A DNA stretch of 64,000 nt from an uncultured bacterium (GTDB lineage: Bacteria > Patescibacteriota > Minisyncoccia > UBA6257 > GWB1-50-10). The translations under genes were made by a program, and so were the position numbers. The stretch spans positions 506,252-570,251 of the forward strand of contig OY970216.1 of NCBI GenBank assembly GCA_963713955.1, in the 5' to 3' direction. Each line of letters begins with the position of its first letter. Position 1 is the stretch's first letter. Positions 4,347-61,937 of the stretch are shown piece after piece. The notes under the pieces were generated by a model. The model was not told the origin of the DNA and searched no databases. It saw only the letters and a list, made by a program, of their open reading frames with translations.

Positions 4347-5614
4347 AAAAGTTCCTGCAACTTTTCAAGCTACCTGATTTGAGGAAGAAGGTTTTGAGCG
4401 TTATTTTCCTGCTTTTTGTTTTTAGACTCTTCGCCGCCATACCCATCCCCGGCATCAATCCCGCCGAGCTCCAGCAATTTCTTTCATCCAATCAGCTCTT
4501 CGGATTCTTAAACATCTTCTCCGGCGGAGGGCTCTCTAACCTGTCAATCATGATGCTCGGCGTGAGCCCCTACATAACGGCCACGATCATCATGCAGCTC
4601 CTCACGATAGTTTTTCCTCAACTCAAGAAAATCTACTACGAGGAGGGAGCGCAAGGCCAGGCGAAATTCAACAGGATATCGAGATATATAACGGTACCGC
4701 TCGCAATGCTTCAGGCGTACGGTTTTCTCAATCTCTTGATAGCTCAGAAAGTATTGAGTCATTTGCTTTTCCCCGAACTTATGGCAAACATCCTCGTCGT
4801 AACGGCGGGGAGCGTTTTCCTCATGTGGATAGGCGAATTGATATCCGAATACAAGATAGGCAATGGCGTATCGCTCATCATATTTGCAGGTATCATAAGT
4901 CGCCTTCCCCAAGAGGTGGGAACGATGTTTTTCAATTTCAACCCCGCGATGCTCCCGACATACATCGCGTTCGTGGTTCTCGCCATCATCGTCATCGCCG
5001 GCGTTACATTCATCAATGAAAGCGAAAGGAAAATACCCATTTCCTATGCCAAGCAGGTGAGGGGAATGAAAATGTACGGTGGAGCATCGACATATCTTCC
5101 CCTCAAAGTGAATCAAGCCGGTGTGATACCGATCATATTCGCCATTTCTCTCCTCTTGTTCCCGCAGTTTTTCGCCCAAGCGGCCGCCGTCATCTCGTCA
5201 AATCTATCCCTTACCCTAAACCGCTGGTCGAGTAATTTTTTCAACAACATACCGCTCTACAGCCTGGCTTATTTCGTCCTCGTGGTGCTTTTCACGTATT
5301 TCTACACCGCCATAACGTTCGATCCCGAAGAAATATCGAAAAATCTGCAGCGGAGCGGCGGGTTCATACCCGGTATACGACCGGGCGAAGCGACGACTTC
5401 CACGATCACGAGGATAATTCACCGCATAACCTTGTGGGGAGCTGTTTTTCTGGGGGTTGTGGCCATATTACCGAATATCACCCAGATGGCGACGGGCATA
5501 ACGTCTCTCACGATCGGCGGCACTGCGCTCTTGATCGTCGTCGCCGTCGCGCTTGAGGTGATGAAGGCCGTCGAATCCCAGCTCACCATCAGGGAGTATG
5601 AAGGGATCATGTAA
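4343..5614 (+). CDS. secY: Preprotein translocase subunit SecY
   Basis: 423-aa polytopic membrane protein with conserved SecY segments (LGVSPYITATIIMQLL, GGTALLIVVAVALEVMKAVESQL). Follows L15 as in the spc operon. Confidence 0.95.
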   Translation: MKKFLQLFKLPDLRKKVLSVIFLLFVFRLFAAIPIPGINPAELQQFLSSNQLFGFLNIFSGGGLSNLSIMMLGVSPYITATIIMQLLTIVFPQLKKIYYEEGAQGQAKFNRISRYITVPLAMLQAYGFLNLLIAQKVLSHLLFPELMANILVVTAGSVFLMWIGELISEYKIGNGVSLIIFAGIISRLPQEVGTMFFNFNPAMLPTYIAFVVLAIIVIAGVTFINESERKIPISYAKQVRGMKMYGGASTYLPLKVNQAGVIPIIFAISLLLFPQFFAQAAAVISSNLSLTLNRWSSNFFNNIPLYSLAYFVLVVLFTYFYTAITFDPEEISKNLQRSGGFIPGIRPGEATTSTITRIIHRITLWGAVFLGVVAILPNITQMATGITSLTIGGTALLIVVAVALEVMKAVESQLTIREYEGIM

Positions 5615-12728: not shown

Positions 12729-12938
12729 ATGGAAAAAATAAAAAAGAAAAAATCGCGGAAACAGGAAATATTTTTGCTCATGGCTTTTGTGATGTTCGTC
12801 ATAACGCTCCTTTCCGCAATCTATCTTGTAACGTCTCTCGGGGAAAACATAGGAGAAACGCTGAAGCTTCCGCCGATCAATAATCAGAGTGCGCAATTTG
12901 ACATCCAGGGCTACCAAAAATTAGACTTAACCCAGTAA
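12729..12938 (+). CDS. Small membrane protein, unknown function
   Basis: 69 aa with a single TM segment (IFLLMAFVMFVITLLSAIYLV). Confidence 0.3.
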   Translation: MEKIKKKKSRKQEIFLLMAFVMFVITLLSAIYLVTSLGENIGETLKLPPINNQSAQFDIQGYQKLDLTQ

Positions 12939-12940
12939 CG

Positions 12941-13021
12941 GGGAGCTCGGTAAGCCGAAAAAGTGTGCGCTCCGGGGCGCTAGCCCAAGTCTTACCCACT
13001 TTTTCGCCTTACCGAGCTCCC
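12941..13021. repeat. REP/MITE-like element copy B (81-bp imperfect palindrome GGGAGCTCGGTAAG...CTTACCGAGCTCCC). It is the reverse-orientation homolog of 26082-26153
   Basis: Outer 14-bp and inner CGAAAAAGTG/CACTTTTTCG inverted repeats. The core GCGCTCCGGGGCGCTAGCCCAAGTCTTACCC is the reverse complement of the core in copy C. Confidence 0.7.
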
Positions 13022-13046
13022 TCAGAATAAGTAAAAAGGGAGGTCT

Positions 13047-13064
13047 GCGCATGTAGTTCAGTGG
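13047..13064 (+). other. 5' fragment of a second tRNA-Ile-like sequence (GCGCATGTAGTTCAGTGG, acceptor + D stem/loop start)
   Basis: Its perfect complement CATGCGC lies at 13334-13340 after a T arm. See 13294..13341. Confidence 0.5.
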
Positions 13065-13196
13065 GTTGAAAGCAAATTGCTTTGCTTTCAACGGGCGAAT
13101 ACCTGTGTTAATTTATATATAGTAATTTCGCCCCGGAAGAACGCGTTCCTGATATCTTCGATATAACTGGTTCGCTCGTTCGAAATGAAAAATAAT

Positions 13197-13268
13197 GGGC
13201 ATATAGTTCAGTGGTAGAACGCTGTCCTGATAAGACAGAGGTCCCAGGTTCAATCCCTGGTATGCCCA
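13197..13268 (+). tRNA. tRNA-Ile (anticodon GAU)
   Basis: Manual cloverleaf: GGGCATA/TATGCCC acceptor, GTTC/GAAC D stem, CTGTC-CTGATAA-GACAG anticodon arm, CCAGG-TTCAATC-CCTGG T arm. 72 nt. It is flanked by inverted repeats (..CGAAATGAAAAATAA / TTCTTTTTCATTTCTCG..). Confidence 0.9.
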
Positions 13269-13293
13269 CCCATTCTTTTTCATTTCTCGCTCG

Positions 13294-13341
13294 CTGCCAG
13301 TTATAAGACAGAGGTCGTAGGTTCGATTCCTACCATGCGCA
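13294..13341 (+). other. 3' fragment of the second tRNA-Ile-like sequence (anticodon-loop-like AGTTATAAGACAG, variable AGGTC, T arm GTAGG-TTCGATT-CCTAC, acceptor CATGCGC, A)
   Basis: Pairs perfectly with the 5' fragment at 13047-13053. The middle part (D stem 3' strand and anticodon stem 5' strand) is absent. Confidence 0.5.
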
Positions 13342-13423
13342 CAAGCGAGTGAAATGGAAAAGTATTTTTACATTTCCGAGCGCAGTCGCATGGGAACCGA
13401 AAGGTCACCATACGCACCAATCA

Positions 13424-13495
13424 GGGCCCGTAGTTCAGTGGCAGAACGCCGCTTTTGCAAAGCGGAGGTCAGGAGTCCAATTCTCCTCGGGTCCA
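13424..13495 (+). tRNA. tRNA-Ala (anticodon UGC)
   Basis: GGGCCCG acceptor (with a G3-U70 pair), GTTC/GAAC D stem, CCGCT-TTTGCAA-AGCGG anticodon arm, AGGAG-TCCAATT-CTCCT T arm. 72 nt. Confidence 0.9.
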
Positions 13496-13610
13496 CCTTG
13501 AGTATGTGCTCAACTTGTGTTCGAAAAAGCCTCATGAATACTAGAATTTCTCGGCCAGACCTAGCTTTTCCAAGTTCAAGTCCTCGGGGTATTGATTAAG
13601 AGTAGAAAGT

Positions 13611-25372: not shown

Positions 25373-26105
25373 AACGCGCATATTCAGAGAAGGCGAGGAT
25401 CTCATGTCTTTTATCGTGGATCACGTCAAAAAAGTTCCGGAACGATCAATAATAGTCGTGACGTCAAAAATCGTGGCGCTCTCGGAAAAAAGAACCGCGG
25501 TAAAAGAAAATCCGAAAACCAAAGAGAAGCTCATCCGTGAAGAAAGCGACTTGGCCATCCCGACGAAATACGTCTGGCTTACTCTCAAGAACGGCATGCT
25601 TATGGCTTCGGCCGGCATCGACGAATCGAACGCCGATGGGAAATTGATACTCCTCCCGCGGGACAGCTTTAAGTCCGCCCGGATTCTCCGGAAAGCTTTG
25701 CAACAAAAATACAGAGTGAAACGCCTCGGCATTTTAATCACCGACAGCAGAACAACGCCGCTCCGGGCCGGCGTTGGCGGCACGGCACTCGGCTACGCCG
25801 GTTTCGGTGGTATACGAGACTACCAGGGTAAACCAGATCTCTTCGGCCGGAAATTCAGGTTTTCGCGCACGAATCTGGCAGACGGCCTCGCCACGGCTGC
25901 AGTCCTTGAAATGGGAGAGGGAAAGGAACGGCAACCGCTCGCCGTCATAGAAAGGGCGCCGGTCGAATTCCACGAACGGACAAACCGCAAGGAACTTTCC
26001 ATAGATGTCCGGGACGACATGTATGCCCCGTTTTTCAAAAACGGAGAAAGTCCAATTACGAAACTCGCTCTCAAACGAGGGTCGGTAAGACGAAAAAGTG
26101 GGTAA
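25353..26105 (+). CDS. CofE-like (F420-0:gamma-glutamyl ligase family) protein
   Basis: VVTSKIVALSE, SAGIDESNADG, LLPRDSFKSAR, ILITDSRTTPLRAGVGGTALG, all characteristic CofE/FbiB N-domain motifs. Confidence 0.5.
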   Translation: MIITPVKTRIFREGEDLMSFIVDHVKKVPERSIIVVTSKIVALSEKRTAVKENPKTKEKLIREESDLAIPTKYVWLTLKNGMLMASAGIDESNADGKLILLPRDSFKSARILRKALQQKYRVKRLGILITDSRTTPLRAGVGGTALGYAGFGGIRDYQGKPDLFGRKFRFSRTNLADGLATAAVLEMGEGKERQPLAVIERAPVEFHERTNRKELSIDVRDDMYAPFFKNGESPITKLALKRGSVRRKSG

Positions 26106-26153
26106 GACTTGGGCTAGCGCCCCGGAGCGCACACTTTTTCGGCTTGCCGAGCC
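26082..26153. repeat. REP/MITE-like element copy C (homologous to the reverse complement of 12941-13021). Overlaps the 3' end of the CofE-like gene
   Basis: TCGGTAAGACGAAAAAGTGGGTAAGACTTGGGCTAGCGCCCCGGAGCGCACACTTTTTCGGCTTGCCGAGCC aligns nearly full-length to the reverse complement of copy B. Confidence 0.7.
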
Positions 26154-59270: not shown

Positions 59271-59327
59271 GGGCATTTAGGCGGACCCGCCACAATGCGA
59301 AGCTTTGGGCGGGACAAGCGCACCAAA

Positions 59328-59606
59328 ATGTTCTATACCTATATCCTTCTGTGTTCAAGTAGTAAGACACCGAGAAAAATATTCTACGTCGGATCATCCG
59401 ATGACCTGAAAAGAAGATTCGACGAGCATAGAAGAGGTAAGGTGAAAACTACGAAAATATTTGATAAGATATTTTTGGTGTATTACGAAGCTTGCAGGAA
59501 TAAGACCGATGCCAGAAAAAGAGAGTTGCAGCTAAAAACCGGGTTCGGCAGAGGATACATCAACAAAAGGATAGCGACAGATCTAAGTAGGGCGGGATTC
59601 GTATAG
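59328..59606 (+). CDS. GIY-YIG nuclease-family small protein (UPF0213/YhbQ-like)
   Basis: FYTYILLC...YVGSSDDLKRRFDEHRRG is the GIY-YIG motif pair. The stop lies within the 5' acceptor region of the outer tRNA-Gly. Confidence 0.65.
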   Translation: MFYTYILLCSSSKTPRKIFYVGSSDDLKRRFDEHRRGKVKTTKIFDKIFLVYYEACRNKTDARKRELQLKTGFGRGYINKRIATDLSRAGFV

Positions 59607-59630
59607 TGGCAGTACGCTTGCTTCCCAAGC
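59592..59630 (+). tRNA. tRNA-Gly (anticodon CCC) 5' portion of a split gene (positions 1-40)
   Basis: Acceptor GCGGGAT, D stem GTAT/GTAC with loop AGTGGCA, anticodon stem CTTGC, loop TTCCCAA, then GC. The remainder is found at 59774-59805 after a 138-bp insertion. Confidence 0.6.
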
Positions 59631-59768
59631 CCCGTACAATAACAACGATCAAAGTTACTTGCGAGCATGGTTTAGTGGCAGAATGCGACCTTCCCAAGGT
59701 TGAGACGGGGGTTCGATTCCCCCTACTCGCACAAATTATCACAAGCAATCGTTGTTATTGTAACAGGG
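59631..59768 (+). mobile_element. 138-bp MITE-like insertion carrying a complete tRNA-Gly(CCC). Terminal inverted repeats CCCGTACAATAACAACGAT / ATCGTTGTTATTGTAACAGGG. A 5-bp direct repeat CAAGC flanks it (59626-59630 and 59769-59773)
   Basis: The TIRs abut the direct repeats exactly. Removing the element and one CAAGC copy restores a canonical tRNA-Gly cloverleaf. Confidence 0.55.
59661..59731 (+). tRNA. tRNA-Gly (anticodon CCC), inner copy carried by the insertion
   Basis: GCGAGCA/TACTCGC acceptor (one C-A mismatch), GTTT/GAAT D stem (wobbles), CGACC-TTCCCAA-GGTTG anticodon arm, GGGGG-TTCGATT-CCCCC T arm. 71 nt. Its sequence is unrelated to the outer copy outside conserved positions. Confidence 0.65.
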
Positions 59769-59773
59769 CAAGC

Positions 59774-59805
59774 AAGACGCACCGGTTCGATCCCGGTATC
59801 CCGCA
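59774..59805 (+). tRNA. tRNA-Gly (CCC) 3' portion of the split gene (AAG completing the anticodon stem, variable ACGC, T arm ACCGG-TTCGATC-CCGGT, acceptor ATCCCGC, discriminator A)
   Basis: All four stems of the joined outer tRNA are perfectly Watson-Crick or G-U paired. Confidence 0.6.
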
Positions 59806-59830
59806 TCAAAGTTGACTAATTAGTACGATC

Positions 59831-60498: not shown

Positions 60499-60783
60499 AT
60501 GGACATGCCTCATGGTCCGTACCATGATCGTATGGACTATCAAAGATATAGGAGCATACCCAACAAGCTCAGAGATTACCGTAAAGCCAGGAATCTAACT
60601 CAGGAACAGGTAGCCTCAGCCCTCAACCTCAAGAACAAAACCCTCATAGCGAGATGGGAGAGACAAAGGTCTATACCAAATCTCATTACTGCCTTCCGGC
60701 TTTCTGCTCTGTATCAGGTTTCGGTGGATGAACTGTTCCATGAAACAGCAGACAAAGTCAGGGAGGAGATAAAAAGGGGATAA
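60499..60783 (+). CDS. XRE-family helix-turn-helix transcriptional regulator
   Basis: LRDYRKARNLTQEQVASALNLKNKTLIARWERQRSIPNLITAFRLSALYQVSVDELF, the HTH_3/Cro-C1 pattern. Confidence 0.6.
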   Translation: MDMPHGPYHDRMDYQRYRSIPNKLRDYRKARNLTQEQVASALNLKNKTLIARWERQRSIPNLITAFRLSALYQVSVDELFHETADKVREEIKRG

Positions 60784-60873
60784 GCGCCTCCAACCTTTCA
60801 GATCATGCCGTAGCCGATTGGCCTGACCCCCATATATTAGACACAAAGGTCGAAGTCAATATACCCTTGTGTC

Positions 60874-61131
60874 ATGAAGAAAACATATCGCACCGCTCCC
60901 GAGGTGAAGGAGCAGATATTGAAGAGAATCAAGGAGGAAGGGATCCCGGTCGTCCAGGCCGCCAAGGAACACGGTCTGAATCCCGCCACCATATACAACT
61001 GGCTGGGAAGGGGCGTGAAAGGCACCCCCACGATCGGTGAACTCGTCCGCCTCAAGCGCCAGAACGAAGAGCTCCTCGCCCTCGTGGGCGAGCTCACCCT
61101 GGCCTCCTCACGCACTCAAAAAAAGCGTTGA
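60874..61131 (+). CDS. IS3-family transposase OrfA (HTH)
   Basis: YRTAPEVKEQILKRIKEEGIPVVQAAKEHGLNPATIYNWL, leucine-zipper-like C-terminus. Confidence 0.75.
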   Translation: MKKTYRTAPEVKEQILKRIKEEGIPVVQAAKEHGLNPATIYNWLGRGVKGTPTIGELVRLKRQNEELLALVGELTLASSRTQKKR

Positions 61132-61937
61132 TCAAAAAGCAGAAGAAGACGAAGTGGGAACTTGCCCGTGAACTCGGCCTCTCCCGCGCCTCCCTCTACT
61201 ATGTCTCGAAACAATCGCCCAAGGATTGGTCGCTCAAGGAAAGGATCATATCAGTCTTGAGAGACCATCCTTCATACGGCTTCAGAAGAGTGGCTTTGGA
61301 GCTCAAGATCAACAAAAAAAGAGCCCAACGGGTGATGAGGCTCTTCGGGATGAAGGCATATCGGAGAAGGGGCAGAAGGCCAAGGAAAACGGGCTTCTCG
61401 AGTATCCTGTATCCCAATCTCCTTCAGAAGAACTTCCCCAAAGGATTGAACGATATCTGGGTGGCGGACTTCACGTACATCCCGTACCAAGGGAAGTTCC
61501 TGTATCTCGCCACCGTGATGGATTTGTTTGCGAGGGAGATCGTGGGCTGGGCCGTGATGAATACCCACTCGGTGCCTCTGGTCCTCCAGGCACTCTTCTC
61601 CGCGGCGGAACATCATCCGAGACCCAACATCTTCCACTCGGACAACGGAAGGGAGTATGGCTCAAGGATCTTCACCGGAGCTCTTTTGAACCTCGGCGTC
61701 AGGATATCGAGATCGAGGAAGTCATCGCCATGGGAGAACGGCTACCAGGAGTCCTTCTACTCCCAGTTCAAGGTGGATCTGGGCGATCCGGAGAGGTTCA
61801 AATCGCTGGGAGAGCTGGTCTACGAGATCCATCGCCTGGTCTGGGACTACAACCACCGGAGAATCCACTCCGCCCTCAGGATGCCGCCTGCACTGTTCTC
61901 GAATCGCTACCAGAAACTTGTCGAAAAAGTGTCTTAA
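61128..61937 (+). CDS. IS3-family transposase OrfB (DDE integrase core), expressed as an OrfAB fusion by -1 frameshift
   Basis: DIWVADFTYIP (D), HSDNGREY (D), SSPWENGYQESFYSQFK (E), the rve integrase core. It is in the -1 frame relative to orfA. Confidence 0.8.
   Translation: MIKKQKKTKWELARELGLSRASLYYVSKQSPKDWSLKERIISVLRDHPSYGFRRVALELKINKKRAQRVMRLFGMKAYRRRGRRPRKTGFSSILYPNLLQKNFPKGLNDIWVADFTYIPYQGKFLYLATVMDLFAREIVGWAVMNTHSVPLVLQALFSAAEHHPRPNIFHSDNGREYGSRIFTGALLNLGVRISRSRKSSPWENGYQESFYSQFKVDLGDPERFKSLGELVYEIHRLVWDYNHRRIHSALRMPPALFSNRYQKLVEKVS

Follow-up and report, generated by a model that had tools for sequence, protein, structure and literature searches.

The stretch of DNA analysed here, called the window, is 64 kb (64,000 nucleotides) long, belongs to a contig of about 0.8 Mb and comes from a bacterium, as its L7/L12, TopA and DprA indicate. 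Following DprA, a 174-aa ORF and a 70-aa ORF, a gene order common to the genomes compared, lies the Ile locus, where ARAGORN and Rfam RF00005 call only two tRNA genes on the DNA as it stands, both on the forward strand, as are all features below unless stated otherwise. One is the tRNA-Ile(GAU) expected from the original prediction (13197–13268; 75 bits for RF00005), and the other is an intact neighbour, tRNA-Ala(UGC) (13424–13495), which belongs to the same hot-spot locus in relatives. That the pair stands without an rRNA gene, at first thought anomalous, is ordinary in these relatives, since in the simple form of the locus found in L007, L009 and L010 (L-numbers label the related contigs or genomes compared with the window) tRNA-Ile is followed after 7 nt by tRNA-Ala.

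The intact tRNA-Ile is enclosed by a second tRNA-Ile, the outer or shell gene, which escapes both programs and was resolved through direct repeats of the inner gene into three pieces (13047–13064, 13135–13154, and 13306–13341), with 80–85% identity to the inner gene across 20–40 nt. Piece 1 (GCGCATGTAGTTCAGTGG) has the predicted form of a tRNA start, with the acceptor 5′ strand GCGCATG, U8–A9, the D-stem 5′ strand GTTC and the D loop up to GG; it makes up direct-repeat family D1 (81% identity to the start of the inner tRNA) and is required for a joined tRNA-Ile. Piece 2 (GGAAGAACGCGTTCCTGATA) comprises GGAA, the D-stem 3′ strand GAAC, G26, the anticodon-stem 5′ strand CGTTC and the loop CUGAUA through A37, and is 85% identical to inner positions 13213–13232 (family D4). 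It is the middle that the outer gene was believed to have lost, and the supposed spacer palindrome GAACGCGTTC is this same piece. Its anticodon is GAU (13151–13153); the UAU read earlier came from the string GTTATAA, which consists of the end of a stem arm (CCAGTTATA, 13297–13305) and A38. Piece 3 (family D2, 80% identity to the inner 3′ half) starts with A38 and the anticodon-stem 3′ strand GACAG and continues with what had rightly been noticed as an orphan 3′ half (13312–13341), namely the variable loop AGGTC (13312–13316), the T arm GTAGG-TTCGATT-CCTAC (13317–13333), the acceptor 3′ strand CATGCGC (13334–13340) and the discriminator A (13341). Two inserts interrupt this gene, one in the D loop (13065–13134) and one in the anticodon loop (13155–13305), and what looked like a single hairpin-rich spacer is in fact a two-hairpin element, the outer middle piece and the 5′ arm of the second insert.

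When the three pieces are joined in silico, ARAGORN calls tRNA-Ile(gat); a join that retains the first insert yields no tRNA. The stem drawn by ARAGORN is shifted because the joins had one extra A at the anticodon-loop junction; counted on the sequence, the acceptor (7/7), D (4/4) and T (5/5) stems of the outer gene are fully paired, and its anticodon stem (CGTTC/GACAG) has 3/5 pairs. The outer tRNA-Ile is probably a decaying pseudogene, and the inner tRNA-Ile(GAU) is presumed to be the working gene. The intact acceptor, D and T stems of the shell could mean youth, gene conversion or function. Compensatory changes set the acceptor and T stems of the inner gene apart from those of the outer one; the two are therefore distinct alleles, not the result of a fresh duplication.

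The anticodon-loop insert is composed of a 5′ arm (13155–13196), with TATAACTGG at 13162–13170, TCGCTCG at 13172–13178 and GAAATGAAAAATAAT, the inner tRNA, and a 3′ arm (13269–13305), with CCCATTCTTTTTCATTTC, TCGCTCG at 13287–13293 and CCAGTTATA; inverted repeats I8 and I2 connect the arms. Together they make an interrupted stem whose two parts measure 9 bp and 18 nt, the latter (13182–13199/13269–13286) being 94% complementary, so the inverted repeats proposed around the inner tRNA hold for these 18 nt, whereas their GCTCG/CGCTCG parts belong to TCGCTCG, a direct repeat. The idea of an inner tRNA on a stem between outer parts of the same identity is thereby supported. As ATA occurs on either side, the boundary between outer gene and insert can be narrowed only to the range from 34/35 to 37/38. 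At 13346–13383, a solo palindrome with no tRNA inside (GCGAGTGAAATGGAAAA ... TTTTTACATTTCCGAGCGC) resembles the insert arms, by eye only; it is missing from the corresponding position in L075.

The nested architecture is not due to chance, because the window holds only two orphan T arms that are well paired and beside tRNA genes, at the Ile and Gly loci, each with a matching 5′ half upstream, because the region folds at z = −7.4 relative to shuffles, and because a near-identical strain, assembled independently, matches the arrangement to the base and another species (L075) has it too. Metagenome assemblies do often break here: L002 and L003 are contigs that stop at window position 12978, 69 nt before the outer tRNA begins, and several element-bearing contigs end within about 150 nt of the D-loop element. 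Such breaks are what chance resemblance or a chimera of strain variants could call upon, yet the probability of either is negligible given that the structure is identical in independent assemblies (the near-identical strain, and likewise L004 and L036), that L075 has it in orthologous form and that the pieces match the inner gene so closely. A third T-arm match (25619–25635) lies on the minus strand, far from any tRNA.

The two-hairpin element of the D loop

The D-loop insert is a 70-nt element (13065–13134) that begins directly after the conserved GG and contains both hairpins of the original prediction, the perfect 12-bp hairpin HP1 (13065–13092; GTTGAAAGCAAA-TTGC-TTTGCTTTCAAC) and HP2 (13093–13133; GGGCGAA...TTCGCCC), followed by an extra C at 13134. 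The family was defined by a covariance model, R1, as GTTGAAAGCAAA-N4-TTTGCTTTCAAC right after GG, then a GGG...CCC hairpin and then NGG. R1 scores 84.6 bits at 13061–13139 and finds no second copy in the 64-kb window, nor any more diverged copies in the window or at simple loci. Across Patescibacteria, 34 distinct copies are known to us, 27 of which are positioned after the GG of a tRNA D loop, all in sense orientation. An intact tRNA is called 52–139 nt downstream in 22 copies (284 nt in one case), and wherever the types of both the tRNA fragment and the downstream tRNA can be judged by eye they agree, as observed for Ile, Ala, Val, Thr, Asn, Asp, and Phe. The HP2 stem is kept by compensatory changes, with 4/7 pairs covarying (0.222 compared with 0.068 in shuffles, none of 500 shuffles being as high), HP2 detection having demanded at least 5 basal pairs; the invariance of HP1 was imposed by the search pattern.

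The D-loop element and an anticodon-loop insert occur together in most shells found, a rate that is biased because all but one of the examined shells were found via the D-loop element. Two independent elements fit this co-occurrence only if the D-loop element rapidly colonises any disabled tRNA copy. Covariance models matched no known intron or ncRNA class, an outcome that would have refuted the original prediction had it been otherwise: Rfam 15 gave no family match for the element or the arms and only chance-level hits, in searches of the window at the gathering threshold, of 12900–13600 at E up to 10 and of 14 related loci at E up to 0.1. Hits below threshold were to YrlA, CRISPR-DR47 and miRNA models, all far below it.

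Several candidate identities were considered for the hairpins and set aside. A consensus scan within the element showed no convincing sigma-70 site that would make HP2 a promoter. For HP1, a phage origin found no match among 2.9 million viral contigs, an integron attC site does not fit because the polarity, with 5′ GTT and 3′ AAC, is wrong, and a DNA-uptake sequence would have to be present in far more copies; a dif-like site was rejected as well, HP1 bearing to our knowledge no likeness to dif sequences. A fixed target-site duplication was also discarded: GG stands on both sides of the D-loop element, yet a clean 2-bp duplication is not established because position 20 also differs (GGTA to GGAA). 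With respect to enzymes, the genes next to the Ile locus include no recombinase, transposase or nuclease, the one transposase noticed in the window is an IS3-like ORF at 61128–61937 (by translation alone), and an all-versus-all comparison of ORFs from 45 loci revealed no recurring enzyme linked to the element family, only synteny clusters.

Nesting in related genomes and at the Gly locus

Comparison shows that some relatives have a simple locus, of which the structure described here is an insertion state. Relatives with an uninterrupted sequence, once envisaged as a sign that the matching ends arose by chance, do exist, but others carry the same or deeper nesting, so they amount to no refutation. 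Two levels of nesting are present in the window, L075, L063, and L039, and three in L004/L036, in which the same D-loop element and a further insert, located at 35/36 and holding a third, intact tRNA-Ile, in turn interrupt the ortholog of the window's inner gene. The oldest shell of L004 lacks the 3′ piece and much the greater part of the 5′ end; a remnant of the 5′ arm of the insert is also present in L004. Elsewhere (L021, L032, L082, and L028) the 3′ piece is missing or truncated.

L075 is a different species. Its cassette is 88% identical to that of the window overall (5′ arm 88%, 3′ arm 92%, inner gene 96%), whereas the flanking genes are 56–66% identical at the DNA level and topA 78%; within the inner gene, A7:U66 has changed to G7:C66 in a compensatory manner. 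The cassette is missing in close relatives of L075 (DprA 89–92% identical). By this comparison, inner gene and shell are shown to travel as a unit. The arms are far better conserved than the flanking genes, which selection on RNA or DNA structure explains as well as recent transfer does. The L075 shell has further damage (an acceptor mismatch, a broken D stem and the T loop TTTGATT), and its anticodon stem, CTGTC/GAACG, forms with that of the window a reciprocal mosaic of two stem alleles.

These data bear on whether a mobile cassette is needed at all. Tandem duplication, unequal crossing-over and gene conversion at a hot spot, into which unrelated palindromes drifted, would be a purely local explanation, and several observations are of the kind it calls for: the reciprocal stem mosaic makes conversion between inner and outer genes evident, two element copies lie 165 nt apart as tandem units in L079, the tRNA-Ile gene is inverted in L032 (a relative; DprA 97% identical), and L078/L082 and L094 have an upstream fragment that does not differ from the beginning of the intact gene. 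We nevertheless regard it as distinctly unlikely, since the compensatory differences make inner and outer genes different alleles, the cassette is far more alike between the window and L075 than the genomes are, and homologous arms recur with anticodon-loop nesting in Ile, Ala, Val and Gly genes, with arm and hairpin families common to unrelated genomes and to tRNAs of different identity. The insert has terminal inverted repeats, the 9-bp and 18-nt parts described above, and related inserts have CCCCG...CGGGG arms of 14–20 bp; L039 and L090 contain members of the arm family that carry no cargo, and the Ile arm of L039 and the Gly arm of the window have CCCCGYAC..AACAACGAT in common.

The Gly locus of the window follows the same logic, as originally proposed, with an outer tRNA-Gly(CCC) that joins to a perfect cloverleaf. 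This outer gene overlaps the stop of a GIY-YIG ORF, just as intact tRNA-Gly genes do in other Patescibacteria, and it is therefore the resident gene and the inner one the newcomer; the GIY-YIG gene, tried as a marker of nested loci, is instead a conserved neighbour of tRNA-Gly. Relative to the Gly locus, the Ile insert is the older and more decayed instance, in agreement with the first reading, except that its outer gene is not partly deleted but complete and interrupted twice. Junction repeats are short and inconsistent, consisting of ATA (3 nt) at the Ile locus and CAAG(C) at the Gly locus, with none at the 35/36 insert of L004.

The outer genes could in principle be functional, the two inserts being RNA-level intervening sequences and one transcript giving rise to two tRNA-Ile molecules. 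The joined pieces do restore a tRNA-Ile(GAU) with acceptor, D and T stems intact, the joined Gly gene is perfect, the inserts sit in loops, including the 35/36 to 37/38 region where introns occur, and the arms form a long helix extending the anticodon stem. However, the organism is a bacterium, and manual pairing revealed no bulge–helix–bulge (3-4-3) at either junction, only an internal loop on one side; the related CCCCG...CGGGG inserts have both unpaired stretches on the same side of a 4-bp helix. No group I or group II model matched, at the gathering threshold or at E up to 10, and for a group I intron the 5′ exon would end in G34, A35 or A37 at three of the four possible junctions and in U36 only if the junction is 36/37; the related insert of L004 can sit only at 35/36, after A35. 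In addition, the anticodon stem of the outer gene is broken in the window and, in reciprocal fashion, in L075, the 3′ piece is wholly missing in many family members, and an outer tRNA with the anticodon of the inner one would bring no gain. Taken together, a functional multi-intron gene is very unlikely. Group I introns do occur nearby in other genomes, as the elements of L079 and L094 are located just upstream of tRNAs with RF00028 matches.

Another way to arrive at tRNA fragments beside an intact tRNA is integration by integrase-type elements, of which the hairpins and arms would be the last end remnants after loss of the body in a streamlined genome. There is an archaeal precedent, in which a recombinase element of 1.8 kb lies between a 5′ tRNA fragment and an intact tRNA (PMC3293823). 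In the tandem variants L094 and L079, 20–42 nt of upstream flank plus tRNA positions 1–19 are repeated on either side of the two-hairpin element and so resemble the identity block of an attachment site; at the Ile locus of the window the repeat is ATA alone. L098 and L104 have an intact tRNA-Gly, then small hairpin elements and then a tRNA-Gly 3′ fragment beginning with CAAG, and the Gly insert of the window has CAAG on both flanks. Against this stand about 35 loci with neither a large body nor a recombinase gene between fragment and intact gene, the nested order of 5′ fragment, gene and 3′ fragment, which requires either simple insertion or two separate integrations, and the maintenance of HP2 by compensatory change, unexpected for a dead scar. 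We consider such scars an unlikely source of the locus. Integration of a circle at the D loop, a related candidate, fits the tandem variants but fails to predict the sequence after the cassette in the window and was rejected, and cDNA insertion of mature tRNAs was ruled out by the lack of a consistent CCA after the inner genes.

Proposed serial tRNA gene replacement and known systems

We favour, with a probability of about 0.6, the reading that the Ile locus arose by serial tRNA gene replacement through insertion cassettes that bring their own working copy. Under this reading, 13047–13341 would be a ‘Russian-doll’ locus, with the working tRNA-Ile(GAU) at 13197–13268 seated in the anticodon loop of an older tRNA-Ile(GAU). 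A palindrome-armed cassette would have inserted into a resident and probably single-copy tRNA gene, a disruption presumably survivable because the cassette supplies the replacement tRNA. RNase P and 3′ processing would presumably release the inner tRNA alone, with shell, hairpins and arms acting as leader and trailer. The disabled shell would then decay and swap patches with the inner copy by gene conversion, and the D-loop element may be an independent small element, specific for site and orientation, that survives only where a tRNA copy has been disabled. Transposition, site-specific recombination, and DNA uptake with recombination on tRNA homology are candidate routes of movement.

A bolder generalization is doubtful, and it is put forward tentatively. 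Patescibacteria might hold ‘self-rescuing’ tRNA cassettes that insert into a loop of a single-copy tRNA gene, either the D loop after G19 or the anticodon loop near 35/36, and deliver an intact tRNA of the same identity, thereby spreading horizontally into essential genes. Nested shells would result from successive invasion, and the two-hairpin module could be the recognition site of a recombination or uptake machinery.

If this reading is correct, some of the smallest bacterial genomes exchange essential tRNA genes, present in single copy, time and again through insertion and not through point mutation, and the fossil shells are a dated record of each replacement; we found no description of repeated replacement of this kind in the literature searched. 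It would also offer a bacterial parallel to the long-debated origin of archaeal tRNA genes that are split or contain introns. Widespread and conserved, the two-hairpin element is strictly specific to the tRNA D loop and is described neither in Rfam nor in the papers searched. Annotation is affected as well, as tRNA finders detect the inner gene only and assemblies often break at nested loci. The mechanism is directly testable with existing groundwater metagenomes and metatranscriptomes.

Among known systems, archaeal disrupted tRNA genes share with the locus the interruption of both D loop and anticodon loop and the long complementary stretches joining the halves. They differ in that here the host is a bacterium, bulge–helix–bulge motifs are lacking and the interrupted gene decays rather than being kept; archaeal introns are not known, from the literature searched, to hold a complete second tRNA of the same anticodon. 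The gain of introns and fragments in archaea has been tied to mobile elements (PMC3293823; see also PMC4390854 and PMC4033280). Integrative elements that target tRNA genes, such as phages and ICEs with their attachment sites and archaeal elements of the pNOB8 type, likewise bring DNA that restores an intact gene and leave old fragments as direct repeats. The inserts described here, in contrast, are 70–150 nt long, have no integrase, supply a whole tRNA instead of a 3′ part and are nested rather than flanking an island.

In the same phylum, tRNA genes of Patescibacteria carry group I introns at 35/36 (PMC13011429), in the same region of the anticodon loop and, in the case of the L004 insert, at exactly the same position; here, however, there is no RF00028 core, the upstream exon does not end in U at three of the four possible junctions, and the interior is a tRNA. 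MITEs, REP-like sequences and hairpin derivatives of IS200/IS605 are similarly short and non-coding, have terminal inverted repeats or hairpins and come in several families per genome, and the arm family, too, exists with and without cargo. They are unlike the present elements in copy number, which is very low here (one D-loop element per 64 kb), in the strict tRNA-loop site and orientation, in the tRNA cargo matched to the target and in that no cognate transposase has been identified here. The choice of tRNA genes as a specific target recalls the Dada DNA transposons, eukaryotic elements reported to insert into tRNA and snRNA genes (PMC8869645). Dada elements are protein-coding and avoid harm through multicopy targets; here harm would be avoided by the replacement copy that the cassette carries.

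Anatomy of the tRNA-Ile locus

The window is of bacterial origin, encoding L7/L12, TopA, DprA, LepA, and type IV pilin-like proteins, and the DprA sequences nearest to its own carry annotations of Paceibacterota, Minisyncoccia or Patescibacteria. In the region concerned, both ARAGORN and Rfam call two tRNAs, tRNA-Ile(GAU) at 13197-13268 (75 bits with Rfam) and tRNA-Ala(UGC) at 13424-13495. The intact tRNA-Ile is enclosed in an older, interrupted tRNA-Ile that survives in three pieces. Piece 1 (13047-13064) corresponds to tRNA positions 1-19 and, in a repeat search, shares 81% identity with the inner gene's start; after it comes an insert of 70 nt within the D loop (13065-13134). Piece 2, GGAAGAACGCGTTCCTGATA (13135-13154), supplies the remaining D arm and the anticodon arm up to A37, with the anticodon GAU; because it matches the inner gene at 13213-13232 (85% identity, repeat family D4), the outer gene is complete but twice cut. 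The second insert, of ~150 nt (13155-13305), lies in the anticodon loop and holds the intact tRNA, and piece 3 then runs from A38 to the discriminator, with 80% identity to the inner 3' half over 13303-13342. The tRNA-like flanks noticed in the original prediction are therefore genuine, as is the feature as a whole, but the earlier picture of the locus needs correction: the middle thought to have been lost from the outer gene is the stretch at 13135-13154, and the proposed outer anticodon UAU is an artefact of taking the last part of the insert's stem-forming arm for the loop.

When the three pieces are joined in silico, ARAGORN calls a tRNA-Ile(gat), the joins having one surplus A at the anticodon-loop junction that shifts the stem it draws; with the first insert retained, ARAGORN makes no call. 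The whole segment folds much better than shuffled sequences (-110.8 kcal/mol, z = -7.4). Well-paired orphan T arms adjoining tRNA genes occur just twice in the window, at this locus and at a second nested locus of tRNA-Gly, while a third match (25619-25635, minus strand) is distant from any tRNA. An assembly artefact is ruled out by independent assemblies of nested loci, as the assembly of a 99.5%-identical strain matches 721 bases around the Ile locus base for base, and a three-level form is seen in two independent assemblies (L004 and L036).

Several other structures are found nearby. A cargo-free palindrome resembling the insert arms (13346-13383) lies between the outer tRNA-Ile and tRNA-Ala, and tCGCATGgGAACcgaaAGGTCaCCATaCGCA (13388-13418) resembles a further, heavily deleted tRNA-Ile fossil; neither is present in the related locus L075. 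Directly 5' of the Ile locus is an inverted-repeat hairpin of ~80 nt (12941-13021; 25-nt arms, 96% complementary), which recurs in the opposite orientation 13 kb off at 26072-26150 and occupies the same place in L004; the short-read contigs L002 and L003 end within it.

Locus states in relatives and a second nested locus

DprA homologues with 50-66% identity share a neighbourhood consisting of TopA, DprA, a 174-aa ORF, a 70-aa ORF, and then the tRNA locus, with RluA further along. The state of the tRNA locus varies from one relative to another. Simple loci (L007, L009, and L010) contain tRNA-Ile, 7 nt, and tRNA-Ala; L075 carries the same two-level cassette as the window, and L063 and L039 are also two-level, with shells, arms, and inner alleles that differ from the window's. 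The three-level loci, L004 and L036, keep a remnant of the window-type shell with its 5' arm, after which comes a gene orthologous to the inner tRNA-Ile of the window. Two inserts split this ortholog in turn, the same D-loop element and a second insert placed precisely at 35/36, inside which is a third, intact tRNA-Ile; the adjoining outer tRNA-Ala has the same construction. In L032, where DprA shares 97% identity with its counterpart at the simple locus L009, tRNA-Ile is inverted relative to L009, and tRNA-Ala is a different allele preceded by a fossil with the two-hairpin element (4990-5080).

The outer shell is a pseudogene. Its anticodon stem in the window, CGTTC/GACAG, retains three of five pairs, that of the L075 shell is CTGTC/GAACG, and the inner copy has CTGTC/GACAG. 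Each outer stem is thus half one allele and half another, for which patchy gene conversion from the inner copy is the simplest account. The L075 shell is further damaged (acceptor mismatch, broken D stem, T loop TTTGATT), and in other loci of the family (L028, L021, L032, and L082) the 3' piece is missing or truncated.

Between the window and L075, the whole cassette (inner tRNA, arms, and shell) is 88% identical, its non-tRNA arms 88-92%, and the inner gene, in which a single pair has changed in a compensatory way, 96%, compared with 56-66% for the flanking coding DNA (78% for topA). The cassette behaves like a mobile unit. L075 is part of a tight clade (DprA 89-97% identical) in which the other members show the simple form or some other arrangement. 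This points either to horizontal arrival of the cassette in the lineage of L075 or to strong constraint on it, combined with its replacement in the relatives; under both accounts, alleles of the tRNA have been swapped at the locus. The locus anatomy, shell decay, the different insertion states among relatives, and the higher similarity of the cassette relative to its flanks can be regarded as established.

The second nested locus, of tRNA-Gly(CCC), spans 59592-59806, with the inner gene at 59661-59731. The outer tRNA-Gly(CCC) forms a perfect cloverleaf once joined and is split in the anticodon arm by a ~150-nt insert with arms CCCCGTACAATAACAACGAT and ATCGTTGTTATTGTAACAGGG, which place the inner tRNA on a ~16-bp stem; CAAG(C) is repeated at both junctions. 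Since the D-loop element is absent here, the Gly nesting looks younger than the Ile nesting. Upstream lies a small ORF of the GIY-YIG nuclease family (~90-125 aa among homologues; 59295-59606, Pfam PF01541 for the window copy) whose 3' end lies within the start of tRNA-Gly, the stop codon falling in the U8-A9-G10 region. The outer tRNA-Gly overlaps this stop codon in the way seen for intact tRNA-Gly genes of four other Patescibacteria lineages, which marks the outer copy as resident and the inner copy as newcomer. The overlap is kept in several lineages with otherwise different neighbours (L098, L104, L110, and L114), and many homologues of the ORF are on very short contigs. An HTH_3 ORF (Pfam) and two ORFs resembling IS3-family transposases, the latter pair (60874-61131 and 61128-61937) assigned from translations alone, lie 0.7-2 kb downstream of the Gly locus (60499-61937).

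The two-hairpin D-loop element and its associated palindromes

The D-loop insert consists of two hairpins. Species-representative genomes were searched for hairpin 1 as GTTGAAANCAA, a gap of 3-8 nt, and TTGNTTTCAAC, and JGI metagenomes with a stricter pattern in which N was fixed and GG was required after the hairpin; viral contigs gave no match to the stricter pattern. Together with the window and L004, both searches yield 34 distinct copies with GG 5' of the element, and all those bearing an organism label are from Patescibacteria (Saccharibacteria, Parcubacteria, Sungbacteria, Gribaldobacteria, and others). Of the 34, 27 directly follow the GG of a tRNA D loop, in the sense orientation in every case, and in these a GGG...CCC hairpin and the sequence NGGAAGA(R)C come after hairpin 1. 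An intact tRNA lies 52-139 nt downstream in 22 copies (one at 284 nt), and most others are truncated by a contig end or stand before an intron-containing tRNA. In every case in which both can be typed by eye, the fragment and the intact tRNA agree, which ties the element, family-wide, to disabled tRNA copies adjoining an intact tRNA. A covariance model built from 26 copies matches the window once (84.6 bits) and has no match in the simple loci.

The invariance of hairpin 1 is a product of the search pattern. Hairpin 2, located by demanding at least five basal pairs, preserves its stem through compensatory changes: covariation is seen at four of seven pairs, pairing holds in 98.6% of cells (shuffles, 90.8%), and none of 500 shuffles reaches its covariation score of 0.222 (shuffles, 0.068). 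By eye, hairpin 2 appears lineage-specific, copies from the clade sharing the DprA neighbourhood being alike across tRNA types and generations.

A tandem form, in which 20-42 nt of upstream flank and tRNA positions 1-19 are present on both sides, is found in L094 and L079. In these loci, tRNA-Asn(GUU) (L094 6949-7168) and tRNA-Asp(GUC) (L079 881-1166), both identified by eye, the latter labelled Thr(tgt) by ARAGORN in intron mode, lie just 3' of the two-hairpin fossils. Both contain a group I intron placed by eye at 35/36 (RF00028; 61.5 bits in L079, and 43.5 bits, under the gathering score of 50, in L094), and that of L094 includes an HNH-like ORF by eye.

The remaining seven insertion sites are not tRNAs. 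In L074 (minus strand, ~1386-1415), the element and a further 56 nt form a 129-nt in-frame insertion, lacking a stop, that follows an initial TGG codon in a gene that by eye resembles a GH1-type beta-glucosidase; the N-terminal FPxxFxW motif stands on either side, repeating the tRNA pattern of old 5' part, element, and new 5' part. Another copy is just 5' of an ORF with a dnaA-like N-terminus by eye.

The arms of the nested variants are 14-20 bp long and have CCCCG...CGGGG at their ends, with CAAG after them in most cases. The arms of the window's Ile insert recur in L075, and L004 keeps a remnant of them; the CCCCG-ending arm before the L039 Ile gene shares ~85% identity with the Gly-locus arm of the window over the first 20 nt, and palindromes of this family also occur without cargo. 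Where a cassette carries Ile, Ala, or Val, the CAAG after its 3' arm is identical to positions 36-39 of tRNA-Gly(CCC), and CAAG also stands on either side of the window's Gly insert, which suggests that the arm family arose in, or prefers, tRNA-Gly anticodon loops.

Further families are present in these genomes. Downstream of an intact tRNA-Gly, L098 (1836-2035) and L104 (1842-1955) carry a different two-hairpin element, consisting of TCCGCCAAAAGC..GCATTTTGGCGGA and then CCCGCC..GGCGGG, in one or two copies. A tRNA-Gly 3' fragment follows each copy, starting with CAAG in two of three cases and with CGAG after the first one in L098; tRNA fossils are thus left by a second family too, which has the same two-hairpin layout. 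In L075 (minus strand), the ~130 nt after an intact tRNA-Ala contain the hairpin-1-like GAACGCAAACTGCTTTGCGTTC (18 bits with the covariance model of the D-loop element), beyond which the tRNA-Ala 3' end is duplicated from the T loop on, a T-loop counterpart of the D-loop pattern. The palindrome CCTGCCTG(C/T)CGGTAGGCAGG, which breaks the D stem of a tRNA-Phe fossil (L046 2950-2987) and recurs in L067 (minus strand) ~60 nt past the D-loop element, is another mini-palindrome family.

Proposed replacement of tRNA genes and known systems

The best reading of the locus is that a working tRNA-Ile lies nested within a fossil shell, as one instance of an undescribed, widespread mode of tRNA gene replacement in Patescibacteria of which the two-hairpin element is the most conserved part, a reading to which we assign a probability of roughly 0.6. 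The tRNA would be produced by the inner gene alone, the cassette having presumably inserted into a resident tRNA gene, an event that may be tolerated because the cassette brings the replacement. The D-loop element would be separate, site- and orientation-specific, and able to survive only in dispensable copies. Movement might occur by transposition, by site-specific recombination, or through uptake of DNA that then recombines at homologous tRNA sequence; no nuclease or recombinase gene is found repeatedly around the family loci.

Rfam 15 has no matching family, and full-text literature searches returned no account of bacterial tRNA genes nested in one another, nor of hairpin inserts in the D loop of Patescibacteria tRNAs. 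A recent survey of tRNA introns in Patescibacteria covers group I and II introns only (PMC13011429). By the features that define them, BHB introns and group I introns both differ from the Ile locus. The closest analogues are integrative elements that restore their tRNA target, although the Ile locus is without their recombinase, as well as the disrupted tRNA genes of archaea, with the model deriving them from integrating elements (PMC3293823), MITEs and hairpin-ended mini-elements, and the eukaryotic Dada transposons, whose targets are tRNA genes (PMC8869645).
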